64,000 nt of DNA, from the NCBI GenBank assembly GCA_022784465.1, contig JALFUR010000014.1:64645-128644 (forward strand), given 5' to 3'. The notes beneath the pieces were generated by a model. That model saw nothing but the letters and a program-made list of their open reading frames with translations. It had not been told where the DNA came from and ran no database searches. Source of the stretch: Christensenella sp. GTDB lineage: Bacteria > Bacillota > Clostridia > Christensenellales > UBA3700. The stretch's first letter is position 1. Each line of letters opens with the position of its first letter. This document shows positions 3,783 through 54,718 of this stretch, in pieces. Position numbers and translations under genes: made by a program.

Positions 3783-3789
3783 ATTTGCG

Positions 3790-4000
3790 TAGTTAAAGAG
3801 GTGCGATACCTAATAGTATGGAGATAAAAAACTGCAAGAAGTTCTTCAAAAAGGAGTTATCGCCGAAGAAAGATATAATCTTGATAGTATCTTATCTGGT
3901 TGTGCAGTGAATAATTGTACGATTGTCATCATAAAATGATGGAGTGCTTTATCTAACCTAAATATGGTTTGTGCGGTGCTCTTAACACTGCATTTTTTTT
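3790..4000 (+). promoter_or_regulatory. Lysine riboswitch (L-box) with an intrinsic terminator as its expression platform
   Basis: The L-box core motifs appear in the correct order: AGAGGTGCG ... GGAGA ... GCCGAAG ... TCTGG ... TTGTCA ... TGGAGTGCT. A hairpin tgcggtg/cactgca plus a T8 run follows (3971-4000). The element sits directly upstream of asd-dapA-dapB. Confidence 0.85.
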
Positions 4001-23245: not shown

Positions 23246-23267
23246 AAACAAAAAAGAATATATCTTT

Positions 23268-23435
23268 AATGCCCCGTCCTTTTGCCTGAGAGATTTGCTT
23301 TCGCATTGCCCCTTCGGCATCTAAATTAATAGAATTCTCCGGAGTGCCGTCCACTTGCAGTCCTTATCTAATGATAACTGAGAGTATTACTCCTTCGTTG
23401 ACTTTCGTCTTCTCCTACAAGCATCTTTCGGCTAC
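23268..23435 (-). promoter_or_regulatory. Tandem glycine riboswitch with two aptamers
   Basis: The minus strand reads GGAGAAG..CGAAGGAGTAA..CTCTCAG..AAGGAC and then CCGGAGAA..GCCGAAGGGGCAA..TCTCAGGCAAAAGGAC. These are the conserved glycine-aptamer cores in duplicate. Confidence 0.88.
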
Positions 23436-49531: not shown

Positions 49532-51736
49532 CTATTTAACAATTTCTATTGGAGCTAGTCTTAAATTAAACTTTTTAACACCTAAAACTGGGAATGAAAT
49601 ATCTCCATTTTCCCCACTAATAGCAACGATTGTTCCTTCTCCATACCTTGCATGCTTTATAGTTTGTCCAACTTTAAATACGGAAACATCCTTATTTACA
49701 GATGGAGTAATTTGCGTTTTAGCAAAAGATGGTGTTGGCCTTGCTGCTATTTTTGAAAAATCTATTGTTGTCTTTCTTGTATCTCTTCCTAACTCTTGAC
49801 TGCTATATTGAGATATATTCGTTCTAATCAATTCCGCCTCTTTTAAAAATTGAGATGGAATACTTGGTTGCTTTTGACCAAATCTATATCTTTCTCTAGT
49901 ATAAGTAAAAGTAAGTTTTTCTTTAGCTCTAGTTATAGCCACATACATGATTCTTCTTTCTTCTTCGATTTCTTCAGGAATTGTGCTCGATCTTAAAATT
50001 GGGAAGATACCATCTTCACAGCCAGCAATATACACACATGTATATTCTAGCCCTTTTACCCCATGAACAGTGGCAATTGTAACTAAATCGTCTGCGCCCT
50101 CTTCTTCTTTATCATCAGAAGATAATAAAGTTACAGACTGCAAATATTCGGATAGTGACGAATGTGGATTGTCTTTGTAGTACTCTTTAGCAGATGAAAT
50201 TAATTCGTTGATATTTTCTAATCTTGTTATATCTTCATCTTCATCCTTATTATACATTTGGCCAAAATCTACAACCTCATTAACATAGTCTATATAGTCA
50301 TCAAGTGGTATATCTCTTTTTTCTACCATAGAATTAACAAGCGCAGAAAATGGTTGAACTCTTTTATATGTAGATGCTGGCAAATCTAATTCGTCTATTC
50401 GCCTTATTCCTTCAAATAAAGATAAAGACTTTGCCTTAGCTGCTTGTCTAACTTTTTCTACAGCTCCATCTCCAATTCCTCTTTTTGGAACGTTTATAAC
50501 CCTTAAAAGACTTTCTTCATCTGCAGGATTAGAAATAAAATTCAAATATGCCAAAAAATCTTTAACTTCTTTTCTTTCATAGAATTTTCTTCCACCAATT
50601 AACTTGTATGGAATGTTATATAAAAGTAGAGCATCTTCAATACTTCTTGTTATTGATGTAGTTCTAACTAATATGGCAAAATCTTTGTTTTGATAATTAT
50701 TGTATCTTTTTAAAGAAATAATTTGCCTTGCAATATAGTCCGCTTCTTCTCTTTCATCATTAAGCTTTATGCAGTCTACCCTAACGCCGTCAGATCCATT
50801 TGTCCAAAGCTCTTTTCCCATACGCAAGTTGTTGTTTTTAATAACTTTATTAGCAATACCTAAAATAGCTTTTGTACTTCTGTAATTTCTTTCAAGTTTG
50901 AAAACTTGACATCCCAAAAATTCGTTTTTAAAACGCCTAATATTTGAATAGTCTGCACCTCTCCAGCCATATATACTTTGATCATCATCGCCTACTACAA
51001 ATACATTTTGGAACTTCATTCCAAGAAGTTTTAAGATTAAATATTGAATTTTATTTGTGTCTTGAAACTCATCAACATGAATATATTGATATCTATTTTG
51101 ATATGAATCTAATACATCTGGTCTTTCTTTAAACAACCTTAGAGTCATAATTAAGATGTCGTCAAAGTCTAAAGCATTATTAATGACTAATTGCTTGTTA
51201 TATTCCTCAAATATTTCTTTTATTTTTGCGCCTTTTTCTGTACCCATCAATCTAATTGAATAGTATTTATCTGGGGTAAAATCAAAATTCTTTGCATAGG
51301 AAATATGATTTCTTACTTCTTTTACAAAGTTTTTCGAAACCTCTTCATCATCTTGATATTTTTCTTTGATTATTCTTTTTACAAGTTGATTTGAAGTATC
51401 ATCATCATAAATTGTAAAGTTTTTTGTAAACTCACCTAATGCCTCTATATCTTGTCTTAATACCTTAGCACAAAAAGAGTGAAATGTAGATATTTGAAGG
51501 TTAGATTGCCCTGTAACACCTTCTATTCTATCTTTCATTTCTTGTGCAGCTTTATTTGTAAATGTAATTGCAAGAATGGAATATGGACTGACACCCATTT
51601 CAATCAAATGAGCTATTCTATAAGTCAACACTCTTGTTTTTCCCGAACCTGCCCCAGCTAAAACTAATACTGGTCCTTCTGTCGCAAAAACAGGTTTTAA
51701 TTGTTCTTCATTTAATAATTTTTTATAATCTATCAT
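49532..51736 (-). CDS. pcrA: ATP-dependent DNA helicase PcrA (UvrD family)
   Basis: It has the SF1 motifs AGAGSGKT, DEFQDT, YRS and VHGVKGLE, and it is paired with ligA. Confidence 0.95.
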   Translation of the reverse strand: MIDYKKLLNEEQLKPVFATEGPVLVLAGAGSGKTRVLTYRIAHLIEMGVSPYSILAITFTNKAAQEMKDRIEGVTGQSNLQISTFHSFCAKVLRQDIEALGEFTKNFTIYDDDTSNQLVKRIIKEKYQDDEEVSKNFVKEVRNHISYAKNFDFTPDKYYSIRLMGTEKGAKIKEIFEEYNKQLVINNALDFDDILIMTLRLFKERPDVLDSYQNRYQYIHVDEFQDTNKIQYLILKLLGMKFQNVFVVGDDDQSIYGWRGADYSNIRRFKNEFLGCQVFKLERNYRSTKAILGIANKVIKNNNLRMGKELWTNGSDGVRVDCIKLNDEREEADYIARQIISLKRYNNYQNKDFAILVRTTSITRSIEDALLLYNIPYKLIGGRKFYERKEVKDFLAYLNFISNPADEESLLRVINVPKRGIGDGAVEKVRQAAKAKSLSLFEGIRRIDELDLPASTYKRVQPFSALVNSMVEKRDIPLDDYIDYVNEVVDFGQMYNKDEDEDITRLENINELISSAKEYYKDNPHSSLSEYLQSVTLLSSDDKEEEGADDLVTIATVHGVKGLEYTCVYIAGCEDGIFPILRSSTIPEEIEEERRIMYVAITRAKEKLTFTYTRERYRFGQKQPSIPSQFLKEAELIRTNISQYSSQELGRDTRKTTIDFSKIAARPTPSFAKTQITPSVNKDVSVFKVGQTIKHARYGEGTIVAISGENGDISFPVLGVKKFNLRLAPIEIVK

Positions 51737-51835
51737 AGTAGGGATATTATAGCATAAGAAAGTGGCTTTAAGGACAAAATATATGCATTATTTTTATAAA
51801 AATTAAATGCGTTTATGTCGGGCTTAATTCTTTAT

Positions 51836-51880
51836 AGCATAAAAATAAAGCCAAGGTTGAAATCGCTCAACTTTGGCTTT
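51836..51880 (-). terminator. Intrinsic terminator closing the two-gene islet operon
   Basis: A 14-bp stem (aaagccaaggttga / tcaactttggcttt, with one G-T pair) is followed on the minus strand by tttattttt. Confidence 0.8.
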
Positions 51881-52044
51881 GCTGATATATACAATTTTTC
51901 CCGTTTACTTCCGGTTTTCTTTGTTCCACCCACTACCGGCCTAAAAGGCGATATATTTGGAGGATTATTATATCAACTAAAAGAGTGTCCATAAAATGAA
52001 ATAGCTACTGCTCACATTTATTTTCTCTTTTATTTTAGTTACAA

Positions 52045-52839
52045 TTACGTTTTCTCATCTTGTTTTTGTAAGTTTAACCCTTCGTAAAAACCGTTTCGAT
52101 TTCCGAAATAATCGGTAATCATAAATAACGACGTGTTAATTACATATAAAACTTTATCTTTTGTTGCCAATTTTCTTTCTTCGGATAATATATTCGCAGA
52201 ATCCGAATAGCTTGAATACTCTTTATAATTCGGCTTATTCCACTTTTGTCCGCAAATCAAATTCAACTTATATAAATTTTGGAGAATCAATAAAGAAAAT
52301 TCTTCCTTGGTATATTTATCGATATGCTTGCTGCACAATTTTTTCTTTGCTACATGCTTTTTGTAAGACGATAACTTTGAAATCGAAACTGTTGCCGAAG
52401 CATACTCGTCTTCGAAATAATCGTCGCAATCGCGATAAGATTCCATCATCGGATAATTGATATACAGTTTCCCTATCGACGGATCGGTTTCATCGACAAA
52501 ATAATTCGCCATTTCGGATAATTTATCCAAATTAGTAAAAACAATTTTCTCTTGTGTACGGGTTTCATTTTTTCTGGCATGGTGAGCGTCACAGTCAAAA
52601 ATCAAGTATGTATAGGCAAATTTTTTTGACAACATTTCCTTTTTGTTCGGATGAATTTCGGATAATACATCTTTTATATCTCCGTTGAAATCGATTTCTT
52701 TCATCTTTTTATAAAGCGAATAGATATTCGTTTCAAGGCAGTAGATGTCAAATTTTAATCCGAAAACATCCGACAATCTGTTGAAGAAATGTGGCTCGGT
52801 TTTAGAGCCTTCAACAATAATCAGAATATTGCTTTCCAT
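52045..52839 (-). CDS. RloB-like / Toprim-like putative nuclease partner
   Basis: The N-terminus is ILIIVEGSKTEPHFF (E10), followed by LIFDCDAHH (D82, D84) and YINYPMMESY. This matches the order of the RloB (PF13707-type) conserved blocks. Its ATG overlaps the stop of the ATPase (TAATG). Confidence 0.7.
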   Translation of the reverse strand: MESNILIIVEGSKTEPHFFNRLSDVFGLKFDIYCLETNIYSLYKKMKEIDFNGDIKDVLSEIHPNKKEMLSKKFAYTYLIFDCDAHHARKNETRTQEKIVFTNLDKLSEMANYFVDETDPSIGKLYINYPMMESYRDCDDYFEDEYASATVSISKLSSYKKHVAKKKLCSKHIDKYTKEEFSLLILQNLYKLNLICGQKWNKPNYKEYSSYSDSANILSEERKLATKDKVLYVINTSLFMITDYFGNRNGFYEGLNLQKQDEKT

Positions 52840-53945
52840 TATTCGTTAAACGCCCCGTTTATATACATTTTTTCAAGATTATGCGCTTCGCGGATCTCTT
52901 TATCCGTAGAATTAAATAAACTGCTTATTCTGTTTGTGGTCATAATGTAGCAACAGTCAGGTCGGGTCAGTTTATTTTGCATTAAATATGTGTTATGCGA
53001 GGTTAAAAGAGTCTGAAAGTTTTTGTTTTTATTTAATCGCAATACAATATTCTCTGCCGATTCGTAATGGAAAAACGCATCGAATTCATCTATAAACAAG
53101 AATGAAATTTTATCGAATGCCGTTATGCTCCAAATGAAATATAAGAACTGCGACATCGTGCCGGTAGACGCAATCGAAACAAACGACGTTTTCTTGCCGG
53201 TTGGAAATTTTGCCATAAGCTCATGAACGCCGTTATTATTACGCCATTCAAGATTATAATGTAAATCATTGTCGGCAAGAAATTTTTCAAATTCATCCTT
53301 TTTACCACTTTCATACAAACGCTCTACAAGTGCGGCTCCGCCGTTTGAAAAGCCGCAGTACGCGTTACCGTCGCTTAGTCCGCGATACCATAACATATTT
53401 TCGACAAATATCATCATTTTATAAAGCAGAGATTCCTGATTTGTGGGAGTATTTCTATAAATATATTTCAAAACCGAAAGTCTGTTATCCAAAAGTTCGA
53501 TTTTAAGATTACCCACTAAATCATTGTCTATAAAATTGTTCTTCTTATCAAAATAGTTATAGTAAAGGACTTCCTTATTATTGATTGTCAATTTTTCGTC
53601 AATCAAATAAAAAGAATCTCTTTTTTTATATTCGTAAACAACTTCATCATCGTCAAATACAAAACAATACTTAAATTCCGCATATTCTTTATCCGAATCG
53701 AGGTTCAAATAATTGCTAAGATACTGTAACGGCATTCTCTCCTTATCGGTAAGATGTAATACAATATCAAACAAAGCAATACCAAGATTGCTTTTACCGA
53801 TGCCGTTTTTACCGTAAATAATACCTTTATTGACAATAGAGTTTACAACAAGATTTTTATTGAACTCATATTCTCTTGCAGTCAAATCAAATACAAGGCG
53901 ATTTTTAAAGCCCTTAAAGTTTTCAACCTCAAATCTTTTTAACAT
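52839..53945 (-). CDS. ABC-type AAA_21/AAA_15-family ATPase (OLD/AbiLi/AriA-like)
   Basis: It has the canonical N-terminus MLKRFEVENFKGF, Walker A GKNGIGKS, a signature-like SIASTGT, Walker B FLFIDEFD and an H-loop TSHN. The track ORF begins 11 codons earlier (53978), but that ATG sits 2 nt from a consensus -10 box. Confidence 0.78.
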   Translation of the reverse strand: MLKRFEVENFKGFKNRLVFDLTAREYEFNKNLVVNSIVNKGIIYGKNGIGKSNLGIALFDIVLHLTDKERMPLQYLSNYLNLDSDKEYAEFKYCFVFDDDEVVYEYKKRDSFYLIDEKLTINNKEVLYYNYFDKKNNFIDNDLVGNLKIELLDNRLSVLKYIYRNTPTNQESLLYKMMIFVENMLWYRGLSDGNAYCGFSNGGAALVERLYESGKKDEFEKFLADNDLHYNLEWRNNNGVHELMAKFPTGKKTSFVSIASTGTMSQFLYFIWSITAFDKISFLFIDEFDAFFHYESAENIVLRLNKNKNFQTLLTSHNTYLMQNKLTRPDCCYIMTTNRISSLFNSTDKEIREAHNLEKMYINGAFNE

Positions 53946-53980
53946 ATCAATACCAAACCTAAACAATTTATTTTTCATTG

Positions 53981-54009
53981 ATTATACCACCCAAAATATT
54001 ATCTGTCAA
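53981..54009 (-). promoter_or_regulatory. Consensus sigma-70 promoter of the islet operon
   Basis: The minus strand reads TTGACA (54009-54004) - 17 nt - TATAAT (53986-53981). Confidence 0.6.
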
Positions 54010-54015
54010 ATATTG

Positions 54016-54050
54016 CCGTAGAAAAATTACGGTTTCGTAAAATATTTACG
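54016..54050. promoter_or_regulatory. Two adjacent CGTA-N7-TACG palindromes (operator or leader hairpins)
   Basis: The palindromes are ccgtagaaaaattacgg (54016-54032) and cgtaaaatatttacg (54036-54050). Their centres are 19 nt apart. Confidence 0.45.
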
Positions 54051-54055
54051 ACAAT

Positions 54056-54085
54056 ATTATACTAATAAAAAAAATTATTTGTAAA
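54056..54085 (-). promoter_or_regulatory. Second, upstream candidate promoter
   Basis: The minus strand reads TTTACA (54085-54080) - 18 nt - TATAAT (54061-54056). Confidence 0.4.
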
Positions 54086-54105: not shown

Positions 54106-54681
54106 TTAAACAAAATATTTTTCCAGCAGCTTATCTATTTCTTTAACTGACGCTACTTTATATTCATTAAAATTATTCTTATTATCTATTAATTTTTCAA
54201 TATTATTCTTTACAATTTTTTCCTCTTTTGATGTGCATTTTATTTGAGTAAATGGAATTGTATCTACTTGCATTGTCCGCTCTAGTTCTATGTATTCATC
54301 CGCTTCTAAACACAAACTGTTTTTAGAATACACACCAACAATAACTTTTTTCCCAGCATTTTTTATTGCCTTGATTAAATAGATGGCATCTAGTTCTGAA
54401 CAAATCAAAAAAAATCCATCAATTAAACTATTTGACGATAAAGATAAACAAACATCAATAACTTGCCTTATATCAATCTTTACTTTCTTTCGATTTTGCA
54501 AAGTCAAAGCAATATCTGAAGAATTTTCTTTTATATAGGAATTAAAAGCACTGTGCCTTTTTTGATTAAAACCATAAAACTTAGAATAGACAATCTCTCC
54601 GTCTATTTTTTGTAATGCCAAATTGAAACTTTCAAAAGAAATATTTATCGAATTTAAATCTACATATAACGCATATCTCAT
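54106..54681 (-). CDS. NYN (LabA/DUF88-like, PIN-related) domain protein
   Basis: It has YALYVDLNSINI and then GFFLICSELDAIYLIKAIKNAGKKVIVGV. This mirrors the NYN pattern (iDg.N ... lvSgDsDf.pl...l...Gk.V). The ATG at 54681 follows a GGGGGA SD, and the track start at 54693 is TTG. Confidence 0.6.
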   Translation of the reverse strand: MRYALYVDLNSINISFESFNLALQKIDGEIVYSKFYGFNQKRHSAFNSYIKENSSDIALTLQNRKKVKIDIRQVIDVCLSLSSNSLIDGFFLICSELDAIYLIKAIKNAGKKVIVGVYSKNSLCLEADEYIELERTMQVDTIPFTQIKCTSKEEKIVKNNIEKLIDNKNNFNEYKVASVKEIDKLLEKYFV

Positions 54682-54718
54682 ATAATCCCCCAAACGATTA
54701 TTTATTAATATATATGCG

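Follow-up and report, generated by a model that had tools for sequence, protein, structure and literature searches.

The 64,000-nucleotide (nt) stretch analysed here (the window; Christensenella sp., contig JALFUR010000014.1, positions 64,645 to 128,644) carries two adjacent genes, here called A and B, which encode an ATP-binding cassette (ABC) ATPase and a smaller RloB-like protein. Judged by profile matches, the pair belongs to PDC-M12, a candidate family that is already catalogued in PADLOC. We consider it probable, at roughly 60%, that the pair is a self-contained, mobile two-gene PDC-M12 operon of the ABC-ATPase plus Toprim-type-nuclease branch, with AbiL as its nearest named relative and with PARIS and RloAB farther away. 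The likeliest function would be that of a defence or addiction module acting like PARIS or AbiL. Both open reading frames (ORFs) proposed earlier from the nucleotide letters, in a reading made without any database search (the sequence-only reading), were present; they lie on the minus strand, which that reading had left unstated, and the two genes are as follows.

52839..53945, minus strand: gene A, 368 amino acids (aa); ABC ATPase (Rad50/SMC-head-like, AAA_21), PDC-M12A; the mechanical ORF reaches back to 53978

52045..52839, minus strand: gene B, 264 aa; PDC-M12B, a putative metal-dependent nuclease of Toprim type, RloB-like, with a helical domain at the C terminus

The family assignment comes from the PADLOC models. 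Residues 12-379 of the long form of protein A aligned with positions 1-369 of the 369-position PDC-M12A model (PDLC04426) at an E value of 7.5e-119, and residues 1-248 of protein B aligned with positions 6-241 of the 251-position PDC-M12B model (PDLC04430) at 8.2e-43. Four more PDC-M12B models also matched protein B. The arrangement that defines the family was found as well: a gene matching the A model stands next to one matching the B model, both read from the same strand and A first. In the catalogue the family is cassette CAS_00072, represented 272 times in RefSeq; it belongs to a set of 145 'phage defence candidates', which were picked for their position inside BREX, DISARM or type I restriction-modification loci (Payne et al. 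2024, bioRxiv 10.1101/2024.01.29.577857). In gene order, strand and two-gene make-up the window pair agrees with the family, and it differs in nothing essential; this copy falls into the gut Bacillota clade (models PDLC04426 and PDLC04430), is chromosomal, and lies outside restriction-modification or BREX loci. PADLOC also assigns pairs from enterobacterial small plasmids, Lysinibacillus, Lachnospiraceae and archaea to PDC-M12. The sequence-only reading had expected that the ATPase and its partner would resemble known families in Pfam and PADLOC, and both did. Its further suggestion of an uncharacterised subfamily was not borne out, since PADLOC-DB already holds the family of this pair as PDC-M12, the models of which match both proteins over their full length.

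Protein A was examined for the elements of an ABC ATPase. The blocks MLKRFEVENFKGF, GKNGIGKS, SIASTGT, FLFIDEFD and TSHN, which had been read from the translation before, were all present, and they were invariant or nearly so in the homologues. They place Walker A at G45-S52, the signature at S260-T263, Walker B and the catalytic residue at D286 and E287, and the H-loop at H317; Walker A, the signature, Walker B with E287, and H317 were invariant across 27 protein A sequences. An invariant C-terminal motif, KEIREAHNLEKMY, is also found in the family. The protein passed the Pfam threshold for AAA_21 (E 2.4e-19), and its match to the SMC_N/RecF-type family stayed below threshold (31.8 bits vs a cut-off of 40). 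The PADLOC AbiLi model (PDLC02335) matched at E 3e-37 over model positions 47-281 of 326, which is much weaker than the PDC-M12A match. A generic PADLOC AriA/AAA_21 model matched at E 7e-19, over exactly the stretch that the generic AAA_21 domain occupies; when compared directly with AriA chains, protein A reached only E 0.018. In the AlphaFold model (pLDDT, for predicted local distance difference test, 84.7), protein A has no long coiled coil and no hinge; only short helices (residues 140-225) stand where Rad50, SMC and AriA have coiled coils. The best Foldseek matches of this model were Rad50, SMC heads and the retron/Septu PtuA (E about 1e-10, probability 1.00). Judged from its motifs and its predicted fold, protein A is an ABC ATPase of the Rad50/SMC type that is apparently competent. 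NCBIfam gave no meaningful match for protein A, for protein B or for the product of the NYN-domain gene upstream.

Protein B contains IIVEGSKTEPHFF, FDCD and YINYPMMESY in its translation, as had been claimed, and these blocks too were invariant or nearly so among the homologues. In an alignment of 40 sequences reaching down to 25% identity, E10, G11, D82, G123, Y129, P130, M131, E133 and S134 were invariant, and position 84 was always D or E. The third conserved block can be written N128-Y-P-M-x-E133-S134. RloB was the sole meaningful Pfam family in 22 of the 26 close relatives of protein B and in 22 of the 40 broad ones (E<=0.01; best E 3e-8), and the (I/V)VEGxxTE and FDxD motifs of protein B fall within the aligned RloB model positions 1-88. 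Besides RloB, protein B had no Pfam match at E<=1, and neither DUF4435 (PF14491) nor Toprim_Old (PF20469) was found. The AlphaFold model of protein B (pLDDT 92.2; predicted template modelling score, pTM, 0.90) shows a four-stranded alpha/beta core, with strands at residues 4-9, 31-36, 74-82 and 123-129, followed by a helical domain at about residues 150-254. E10 ends strand 1, D82-C-D84 ends strand 3, and NYPMMES comes directly after strand 4. In this predicted structure, protein B has a Toprim-like arrangement, with a Glu after strand 1 and a DxD after strand 3. A sequence search of the PDB with protein B alone or with its close-family profile returned nothing relevant. The broad B-family profile matched only 1t6t, which we take to be a small Toprim protein, at a weak E of 0.027 with both acidic motifs in register. 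Protein B may be a metal-dependent nuclease with an E10 / D82-x-D/E84 / E133 site.

The two genes occur together far beyond this window. A large protein database held 4153 A homologues (E<=1e-10) and 297 B homologues, and among 80 genome loci there were 76 in which A immediately preceded B, both on one strand; the association is therefore beyond chance. Protein A is more conserved than protein B. A scan of one genome per species gave 158 relatives, mostly from gut and rumen Bacillota; the other hosts were Treponema, Elusimicrobia, Victivallales, Kiritimatiellota, Succinivibrionaceae, Sutterella, one Pseudomonadales genome and one Methanosarcinales genome. The A-B pairing itself spans Bacillota, Spirochaetota, Elusimicrobiota, Verrucomicrobiota/Lentisphaerota, Pseudomonadota and one archaeon. 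In an exhaustive profile search, 1509 clusters of the B family were recovered, 979 of them at E<=1e-10, from the 1.84 billion representatives of a metagenome-scale library, the clusters being defined at 50% identity. The representatives were nearly all 240-290 aa long, and no fusion of B to an ATPase was seen among the top 150. Nine of these 150 (P0283, P0294, P0299, P0303, P0312, P0323, P0332, P0349 and P0385) are 412-505 aa long, with the B domain at the N terminus; the part behind it, a C-terminal extension measuring roughly 150-250 aa, had no Pfam match. Some relatives look decayed (L008, L029, L030 and L052), with A split or shortened or with B truncated, in keeping with frequent functional loss in PDC-M12.

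In the window, the pair lies within a compact segment whose extent is given by its similarity to copies in other organisms. The parts of this segment and the gene upstream of it are listed below.

51827..54063, minus strand: horizontally shared cassette of about 2.2 kb, comprising promoter, A, B, 3' region and terminator

53981..54009, minus strand: predicted sigma-70-type promoter, TTGACA, 17-nt spacer and extended -10 TGnTATAAT, 12 of 12 consensus matches (consensus match only)

54016..54032, minus strand: second inverted repeat, CCGTA-N7-TACGG, abutting the -35 box on its upstream side (read from the sequence)

54036..54050, minus strand: perfect palindrome CGTAAATATTTTACG, 5' of the promoter and within the transferred cassette, a candidate operator

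51881..52044, minus strand: non-coding 3' region of the cassette, 164 nt, alignable with the copy in L003

51837..51880, minus strand: terminator-like hairpin with 14-nt arms and a 6-nt loop, followed by ATTTTTAT, at the 3' end of the cassette

54106..54693, minus strand: NYN-domain gene (Pfam E 2.2e-7), directly upstream of the cassette

The long ORF of gene A covers 52839..53978 on the minus strand and would encode 379 aa. Since the 3' end of the promoter is only 2 nt from the upstream ATG at 53978, the PADLOC PDC-M12A model first aligns at residue 12 of this ORF, 368 aa is the length of many gene A homologues, and the 94% identical copy in L003 has no upstream ATG, translation most likely begins at the ATG at 53945, so that the protein would start with MLKRFEVENF... 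and have 368 aa. The earlier estimate of about 368 aa for the ATPase agrees with this better start. The junction between A and B reads GAATAATGGAA, in which the final base of the TAA stop also opens the ATG of B, so that stop and start share one base at 52839, as the proposed TAATG overlap had it. In related loci, the stop of A and the start of B overlap or abut in 50 of 53 cases. Judged from this overlap, A and B are translationally coupled.

The promoter was kept in L003 and L004, which hold the cassette in other contexts. The palindrome CGTAAATATTTTACG occurs once in the window and was kept in L004 and L001 and partly in L003, and the repeat CCGTA-N7-TACGG was kept in the copies of L003, L004 and L001. 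The two inverted repeats 5' of the -35 box (54016-54050) could be an operator; the cassette contains no regulator gene. The 3' region, when folded with the terminator included, had a z-score of -3.2, and it matched no Rfam family. Comparison with L003 showed indels there that would disrupt any ORF. A plus-strand ORF at 51815..51994 was rejected as a gene because it is broken by these indels. The terminator hairpin, recognised by its inverted repeat and predicted fold, was kept in L003, with the differences restricted to the loop.

We then compared the cassette with its close copies. L003, a metagenome-assembled genome of the Bacilli, and L004, one of the Clostridia, carry the module at 93-94% nucleotide identity to the window. 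The similarity is limited to window positions 54054/54063 to 51827/52068 and comprises the promoter, A and B, and in L003 also the 3' region and the terminator; the flanks are unrelated. In L003 these are a GH31 glycosidase gene and a gene for a Schlafen/AlbA_2 protein, and in L004 they are genes for an AAA+ ATPase and a trypsin-like protease, with a serine recombinase downstream. One cassette, 93-94% identical in three unrelated contexts, is, at the level of sequence comparison, evidence of recent horizontal transfer. The cassette spreads as a bare promoter-to-terminator unit without a recombinase of its own. Over 51001-54000, the guanine-cytosine (GC) skew lies between -0.09 and -0.13, weaker than the flanking values of about -0.17 to -0.29, and the GC content is slightly higher (0.326 vs about 0.30); this would fit a recent acquisition and is not decisive.

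Over the housekeeping genes around the pair, a sister lineage (L083-L088) has the same gene order and about 81% identity. The resemblance to the window stops precisely where the NYN gene ends (54104), and unrelated AT-rich sequence follows; gene A was therefore not found directly after the NYN gene, within the at most 450 nt of contig beyond it. All six sister-lineage contigs end 5-450 nt past the NYN gene, which suggests a strain-variable or repeated segment at this point, and an exact-pattern scan of Joint Genome Institute (JGI) metagenomes gave no extension of the sister-lineage sequence past this gene. The NYN gene was considered as a third component of the system and rejected: its product had no PADLOC match, the sister lineage has the gene without A behind it, and it lies outside the shared cassette. 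Because it is outside the cassette and is kept beside the 8-oxoguanine glycosylase (OGG) gene in the sister lineage, the NYN gene is taken as a host gene.

A natural variant of the cassette bears on protein B. L001 and L002, which are 99% identical to the window, have a 62-nt deletion in B between the microhomologies ATTATCCGA and ATTACCGA (window 52120-52180, compared with L001:11790-11800 and L002). The deletion frameshifts B to 231 aa, with loss of the conserved C-terminal NTSLF...DYFGNRNGFY block, and leaves A intact; strain L089 retains an intact 264-aa B. The frameshifted allele, together with the decayed relatives, fits a costly, dispensable and possibly toxic effector.

In the window, the pair is flanked by pcrA and ligA on one side and by the NYN-domain gene and the OGG gene on the other, with pcrA, ligA and the OGG gene on the same strand as the pair. 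Near the pair, the window has neither a methylase, restriction or integrase gene nor a toxin-antitoxin gene, and the earlier statement to this effect was right. Beside pcrA and ligA, the pair is an inserted accessory module and not part of a repair gene cluster. Across the window, just two Rfam families passed their thresholds: a lysine riboswitch at 3788-3957 on the plus strand (96 bits) and a glycine riboswitch at 23264-23352 on the minus strand (60 bits).

Among the relatives, no neighbour family occurred in more than 8 of 76 loci, and the commonest flanking families accounted for at most 6 of 136 flanking genes. Many flanking genes are housekeeping genes; others include integrases, helix-turn-helix regulators, type I and type III restriction genes, a prokaryotic Argonaute (pAgo), AbiEii, LmuA and MADS components. 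Some relatives lie on serine-recombinase/Mob_Pre elements beside Eco57I/MmeI-type restriction-modification genes and T5orf172 helicases, and some in conjugative-element-like regions with ArdA, type IV secretion system (T4SS), PIN-MazE and transposase genes. One relative stands between groESL and purE, a housekeeping setting like that of the window, and in L101 and L102 the pair is alone in the chromosome among housekeeping genes. Plasmids of 4.0-4.4 kb from E. coli (L095, NZ_CP023904) and Raoultella (L096, NZ_CP048355) hold a PDC-M12 pair that is the only annotated cargo besides mob, rep and rop, with 28-33% identity to protein B. In line with what the sequence-only reading had expected of a defence system, the relatives thus sit in variable, often mobile or defence-rich settings, with no conserved housekeeping context. 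One metagenomic contig (L106:1094-13347) has five tandem AAA_15/21 ATPase genes plus a Schlafen/AlbA_2 gene; the partners of the ATPases are one PDC-M12 B, one DUF3226 protein, one canonical RloB and two unannotated proteins of about 203 aa. This region looks like an island of ATPase-effector pairs.

We next compared the pair with characterised systems. AbiL of L. lactis is a two-gene operon as well, with an AAA_21 ABC ATPase gene followed by a gene for a small RloB/Toprim-type protein, and it is a demonstrated abortive-infection (anti-phage) system that has been grouped with PARIS as ABC ATPase plus TOPRIM. The matches of the window pair to AbiL are, however, far weaker than those to PDC-M12, and the AbiLii match lies on a short stretch of the model (PDLC02337, E 1.3e-5, with only model positions 30-60 of 170 aligned). 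PARIS is alike in its logic, having an ABC ATPase gene followed by a gene for a Toprim-type effector, and it is mobile; AriA keeps AriB bound and lets it go once a phage protein is sensed, in the manner of a toxin-antitoxin system. AriB has a DUF4435 domain, whereas protein B has no DUF4435 and no sequence or structure match to AriB, and the AriA chains have 464 aa, compared with the 368 aa of protein A, which has no long coiled-coil insert. ATPases of the AriA type form a hexamer by means of helical-bundle/coiled-coil inserts. The nucleases of the OLD family (P2 Old and GajA) also join an ABC ATPase with a Toprim-type metal-dependent nuclease, but as one fused polypeptide; the window has two separate genes and no PF20469 match. 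RloA/RloB, from Campylobacter type I restriction-modification loci, is linked to the pair by RloB, the only Pfam family of protein B, whose N-terminal motifs align. In this case, the differences are a score below the Pfam cut-off, an unmatched C-terminal half, the lack of restriction-modification genes near the window pair, and a third motif that reads NYPMxES instead of the NPxFE of canonical RloB (the example in L106). [quoted passage not shown] PARIS acts on tRNA-Lys, and OLD/Gabija act on DNA. The literature has asked if pairs such as AbiL and RloAB operate as PARIS does.

The sequence-only reading had described a stand-alone split pair of an ABC ATPase and an RloB/Toprim-like protein, and this description stands (AAA_21, E 2.4e-19; AbiLi, E 3e-37; RloB, E 5.6e-7). 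Its claims of kinship fared unequally: that to AbiL was recovered for protein A (AbiLi, E 3e-37), with protein B matching a short stretch of AbiLii (E 1.3e-5), while AriB and the OLD Toprim domain gave no match.

For the PDC-M12 operon read as an AbiL- or PARIS-like module, we infer an anti-phage function, nuclease activity of protein B and a complex of A with B, together with a trigger and a substrate, in the following order of events. The operon would be transcribed from its own strong promoter, with A and B translationally coupled. Protein A would act as sensor and scaffold and keep the RloB-like Toprim nuclease B inactive. A cue from a phage or another invader, coupled to ATP binding or hydrolysis, would then free or activate protein B, which may cut nucleic acid (tRNA or DNA) by means of the E10 / D82-x-D/E84 / E133 metal site. 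Such cleavage would halt the growth of the infected cell or the replication of the invader.

Several results weigh against this reading. The sole Pfam match of protein B, RloB (PF13707), is sub-threshold (E 5.6e-7; 30.4 vs 31.5 bits) and covers model positions 1-88 of 195, which is the N-terminal half only. When the B family was aligned with one canonical RloB by hhalign, the N-terminal 59 columns were matched at E 0.011 and 4% probability. Foldseek with the B model gave no match at E<=0.001 in the PDB (best 0.048) or in BFVD (best 0.005). The weak PDB matches were mostly topoisomerase II cleavage cores, which hold a Toprim domain, the weak BFVD matches were topoisomerase 2, an RloB-like phage protein and DnaG, and the best 50 matches listed included none to the AriB structures 8ux9 and 8v45, to OLD or to GajA. 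Because all matches in the PDB and BFVD were weaker than E 0.001, a structural kinship of protein B to AriB, OLD or GajA was dropped as a claim; as far as the predicted model goes, the structural support for a Toprim/PARIS link of B is thin. Since Pfam, PDB sequences and Foldseek detect no similarity of protein B to AriB or to the OLD Toprim domain, the PARIS-like mechanism is an analogy only. A full-text literature search found no paper mentioning PDC-M12 and no experimental test, and HEC-01, a related ATPase plus TOPRIM candidate, gave no protection in one study; a HEC-01 representative did protect in another. Furthermore, the flanks of the window pair are purely housekeeping with no defence gene adjoining, and a search of 50,697 phage records gave no homologue of B.

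PDC-M12 might, tentatively, be a mechanistically distinct ABC-ATPase/Toprim branch, with another trigger or substrate than PARIS or OLD/Gabija. This possibility arises because protein B has the family-specific NYPMxES block and a C-terminal helical domain, and because protein A is small, highly conserved and free of coiled coils, with the invariant KEIREAHNLEKMY. For this domain of protein B (about residues 150-254), neither the PDB nor BFVD offered a structural relative of significance.

A role as a toxin-antitoxin-like addiction module, in which B would be the toxin and A its neutraliser, the carrier element or plasmid would be stabilised and any effect on phage would be incidental, seems rather unlikely by itself. 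It would account for the 4.0-4.4 kb plasmids whose sole annotated non-backbone cargo is the pair, for the frequency of the pair on integrative or mobilizable elements, and for the L001/L002 allele, since a frameshifted B beside an intact A is a tolerated state if B is toxic; PARIS itself acts as a toxin-antitoxin pair. In the window and in L101/L102, however, the pair is alone in the chromosome with nothing there to stabilise, and a 368-aa ATPase with conserved catalytic motifs exceeds the needs of a simple antitoxin. Addiction and abortive-infection defence are, moreover, not mutually exclusive.

By analogy with Wadjet and Lamassu, the pair could be an anti-plasmid or anti-mobile-element system that cuts incoming DNA, which we regard as unlikely. 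The fold of protein A is nearest to Rad50 and SMC heads, Wadjet also pairs an ABC ATPase with a Toprim domain, some relatives lie in conjugative-like elements beside ArdA and T4SS genes, and the 50,697 phage records held no homologue. Nevertheless, protein A lacks a long coiled coil or hinge, its insert consisting of short helices, and a Wadjet-type DNA loop extrusion is therefore unlikely. The closest sequence relatives are AbiL/AriA-type AAA_21 ATPases and not JetC, and AbiL is a demonstrated anti-phage system.

That the pair is an RloA/RloB-type accessory dependent on a type I/IIG restriction-modification system, and hence an orphan that is probably inert in the window, appears highly unlikely. 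Most loci have no adjoining restriction-modification genes, the cassette has its own promoter and terminator and moves alone, and on small plasmids the pair is the sole annotated non-backbone cargo. In favour of it are RloB as the only Pfam match of protein B, the definition of PDC-M12 from copies within BREX, DISARM or type I restriction-modification loci, and some relatives that adjoin Eco57I/MmeI-type or type I restriction-modification genes.

A housekeeping repair pair like RecF/RecN with RecR, tied to the pcrA-ligA and OGG genes that it adjoins on the same strand and hinted at by the sub-threshold SMC_N/RecF-type Pfam match of protein A (31.8 vs 40 bits), is extremely improbable and was rejected, since the cassette is sporadic across phyla, mobile, present on plasmids and in unrelated contexts of other organisms, and was not encountered right behind the NYN gene of a sister lineage that otherwise shares the gene order, in addition to which no NCBIfam housekeeping family matched and a natural allele carries a frameshifted B.

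The window copy of PDC-M12 is a clean, intact and natively promoted example, of the gut Bacillota-like kind, of a catalogued candidate family. To this family the present work contributes the exact anatomy of the cassette, the evidence of its recent horizontal transfer, and the breadth of contexts in which the family occurs, and it makes plain how thin the structural link to Toprim and PARIS is. The sharp cassette boundaries, the natural allele with a frameshifted B, and the relatives on 4-kb E. coli plasmids make this copy a convenient one for functional and structural work. PDC-M12 bears on the question raised in the literature whether all pairs of an ATPase and a Toprim protein act like PARIS.

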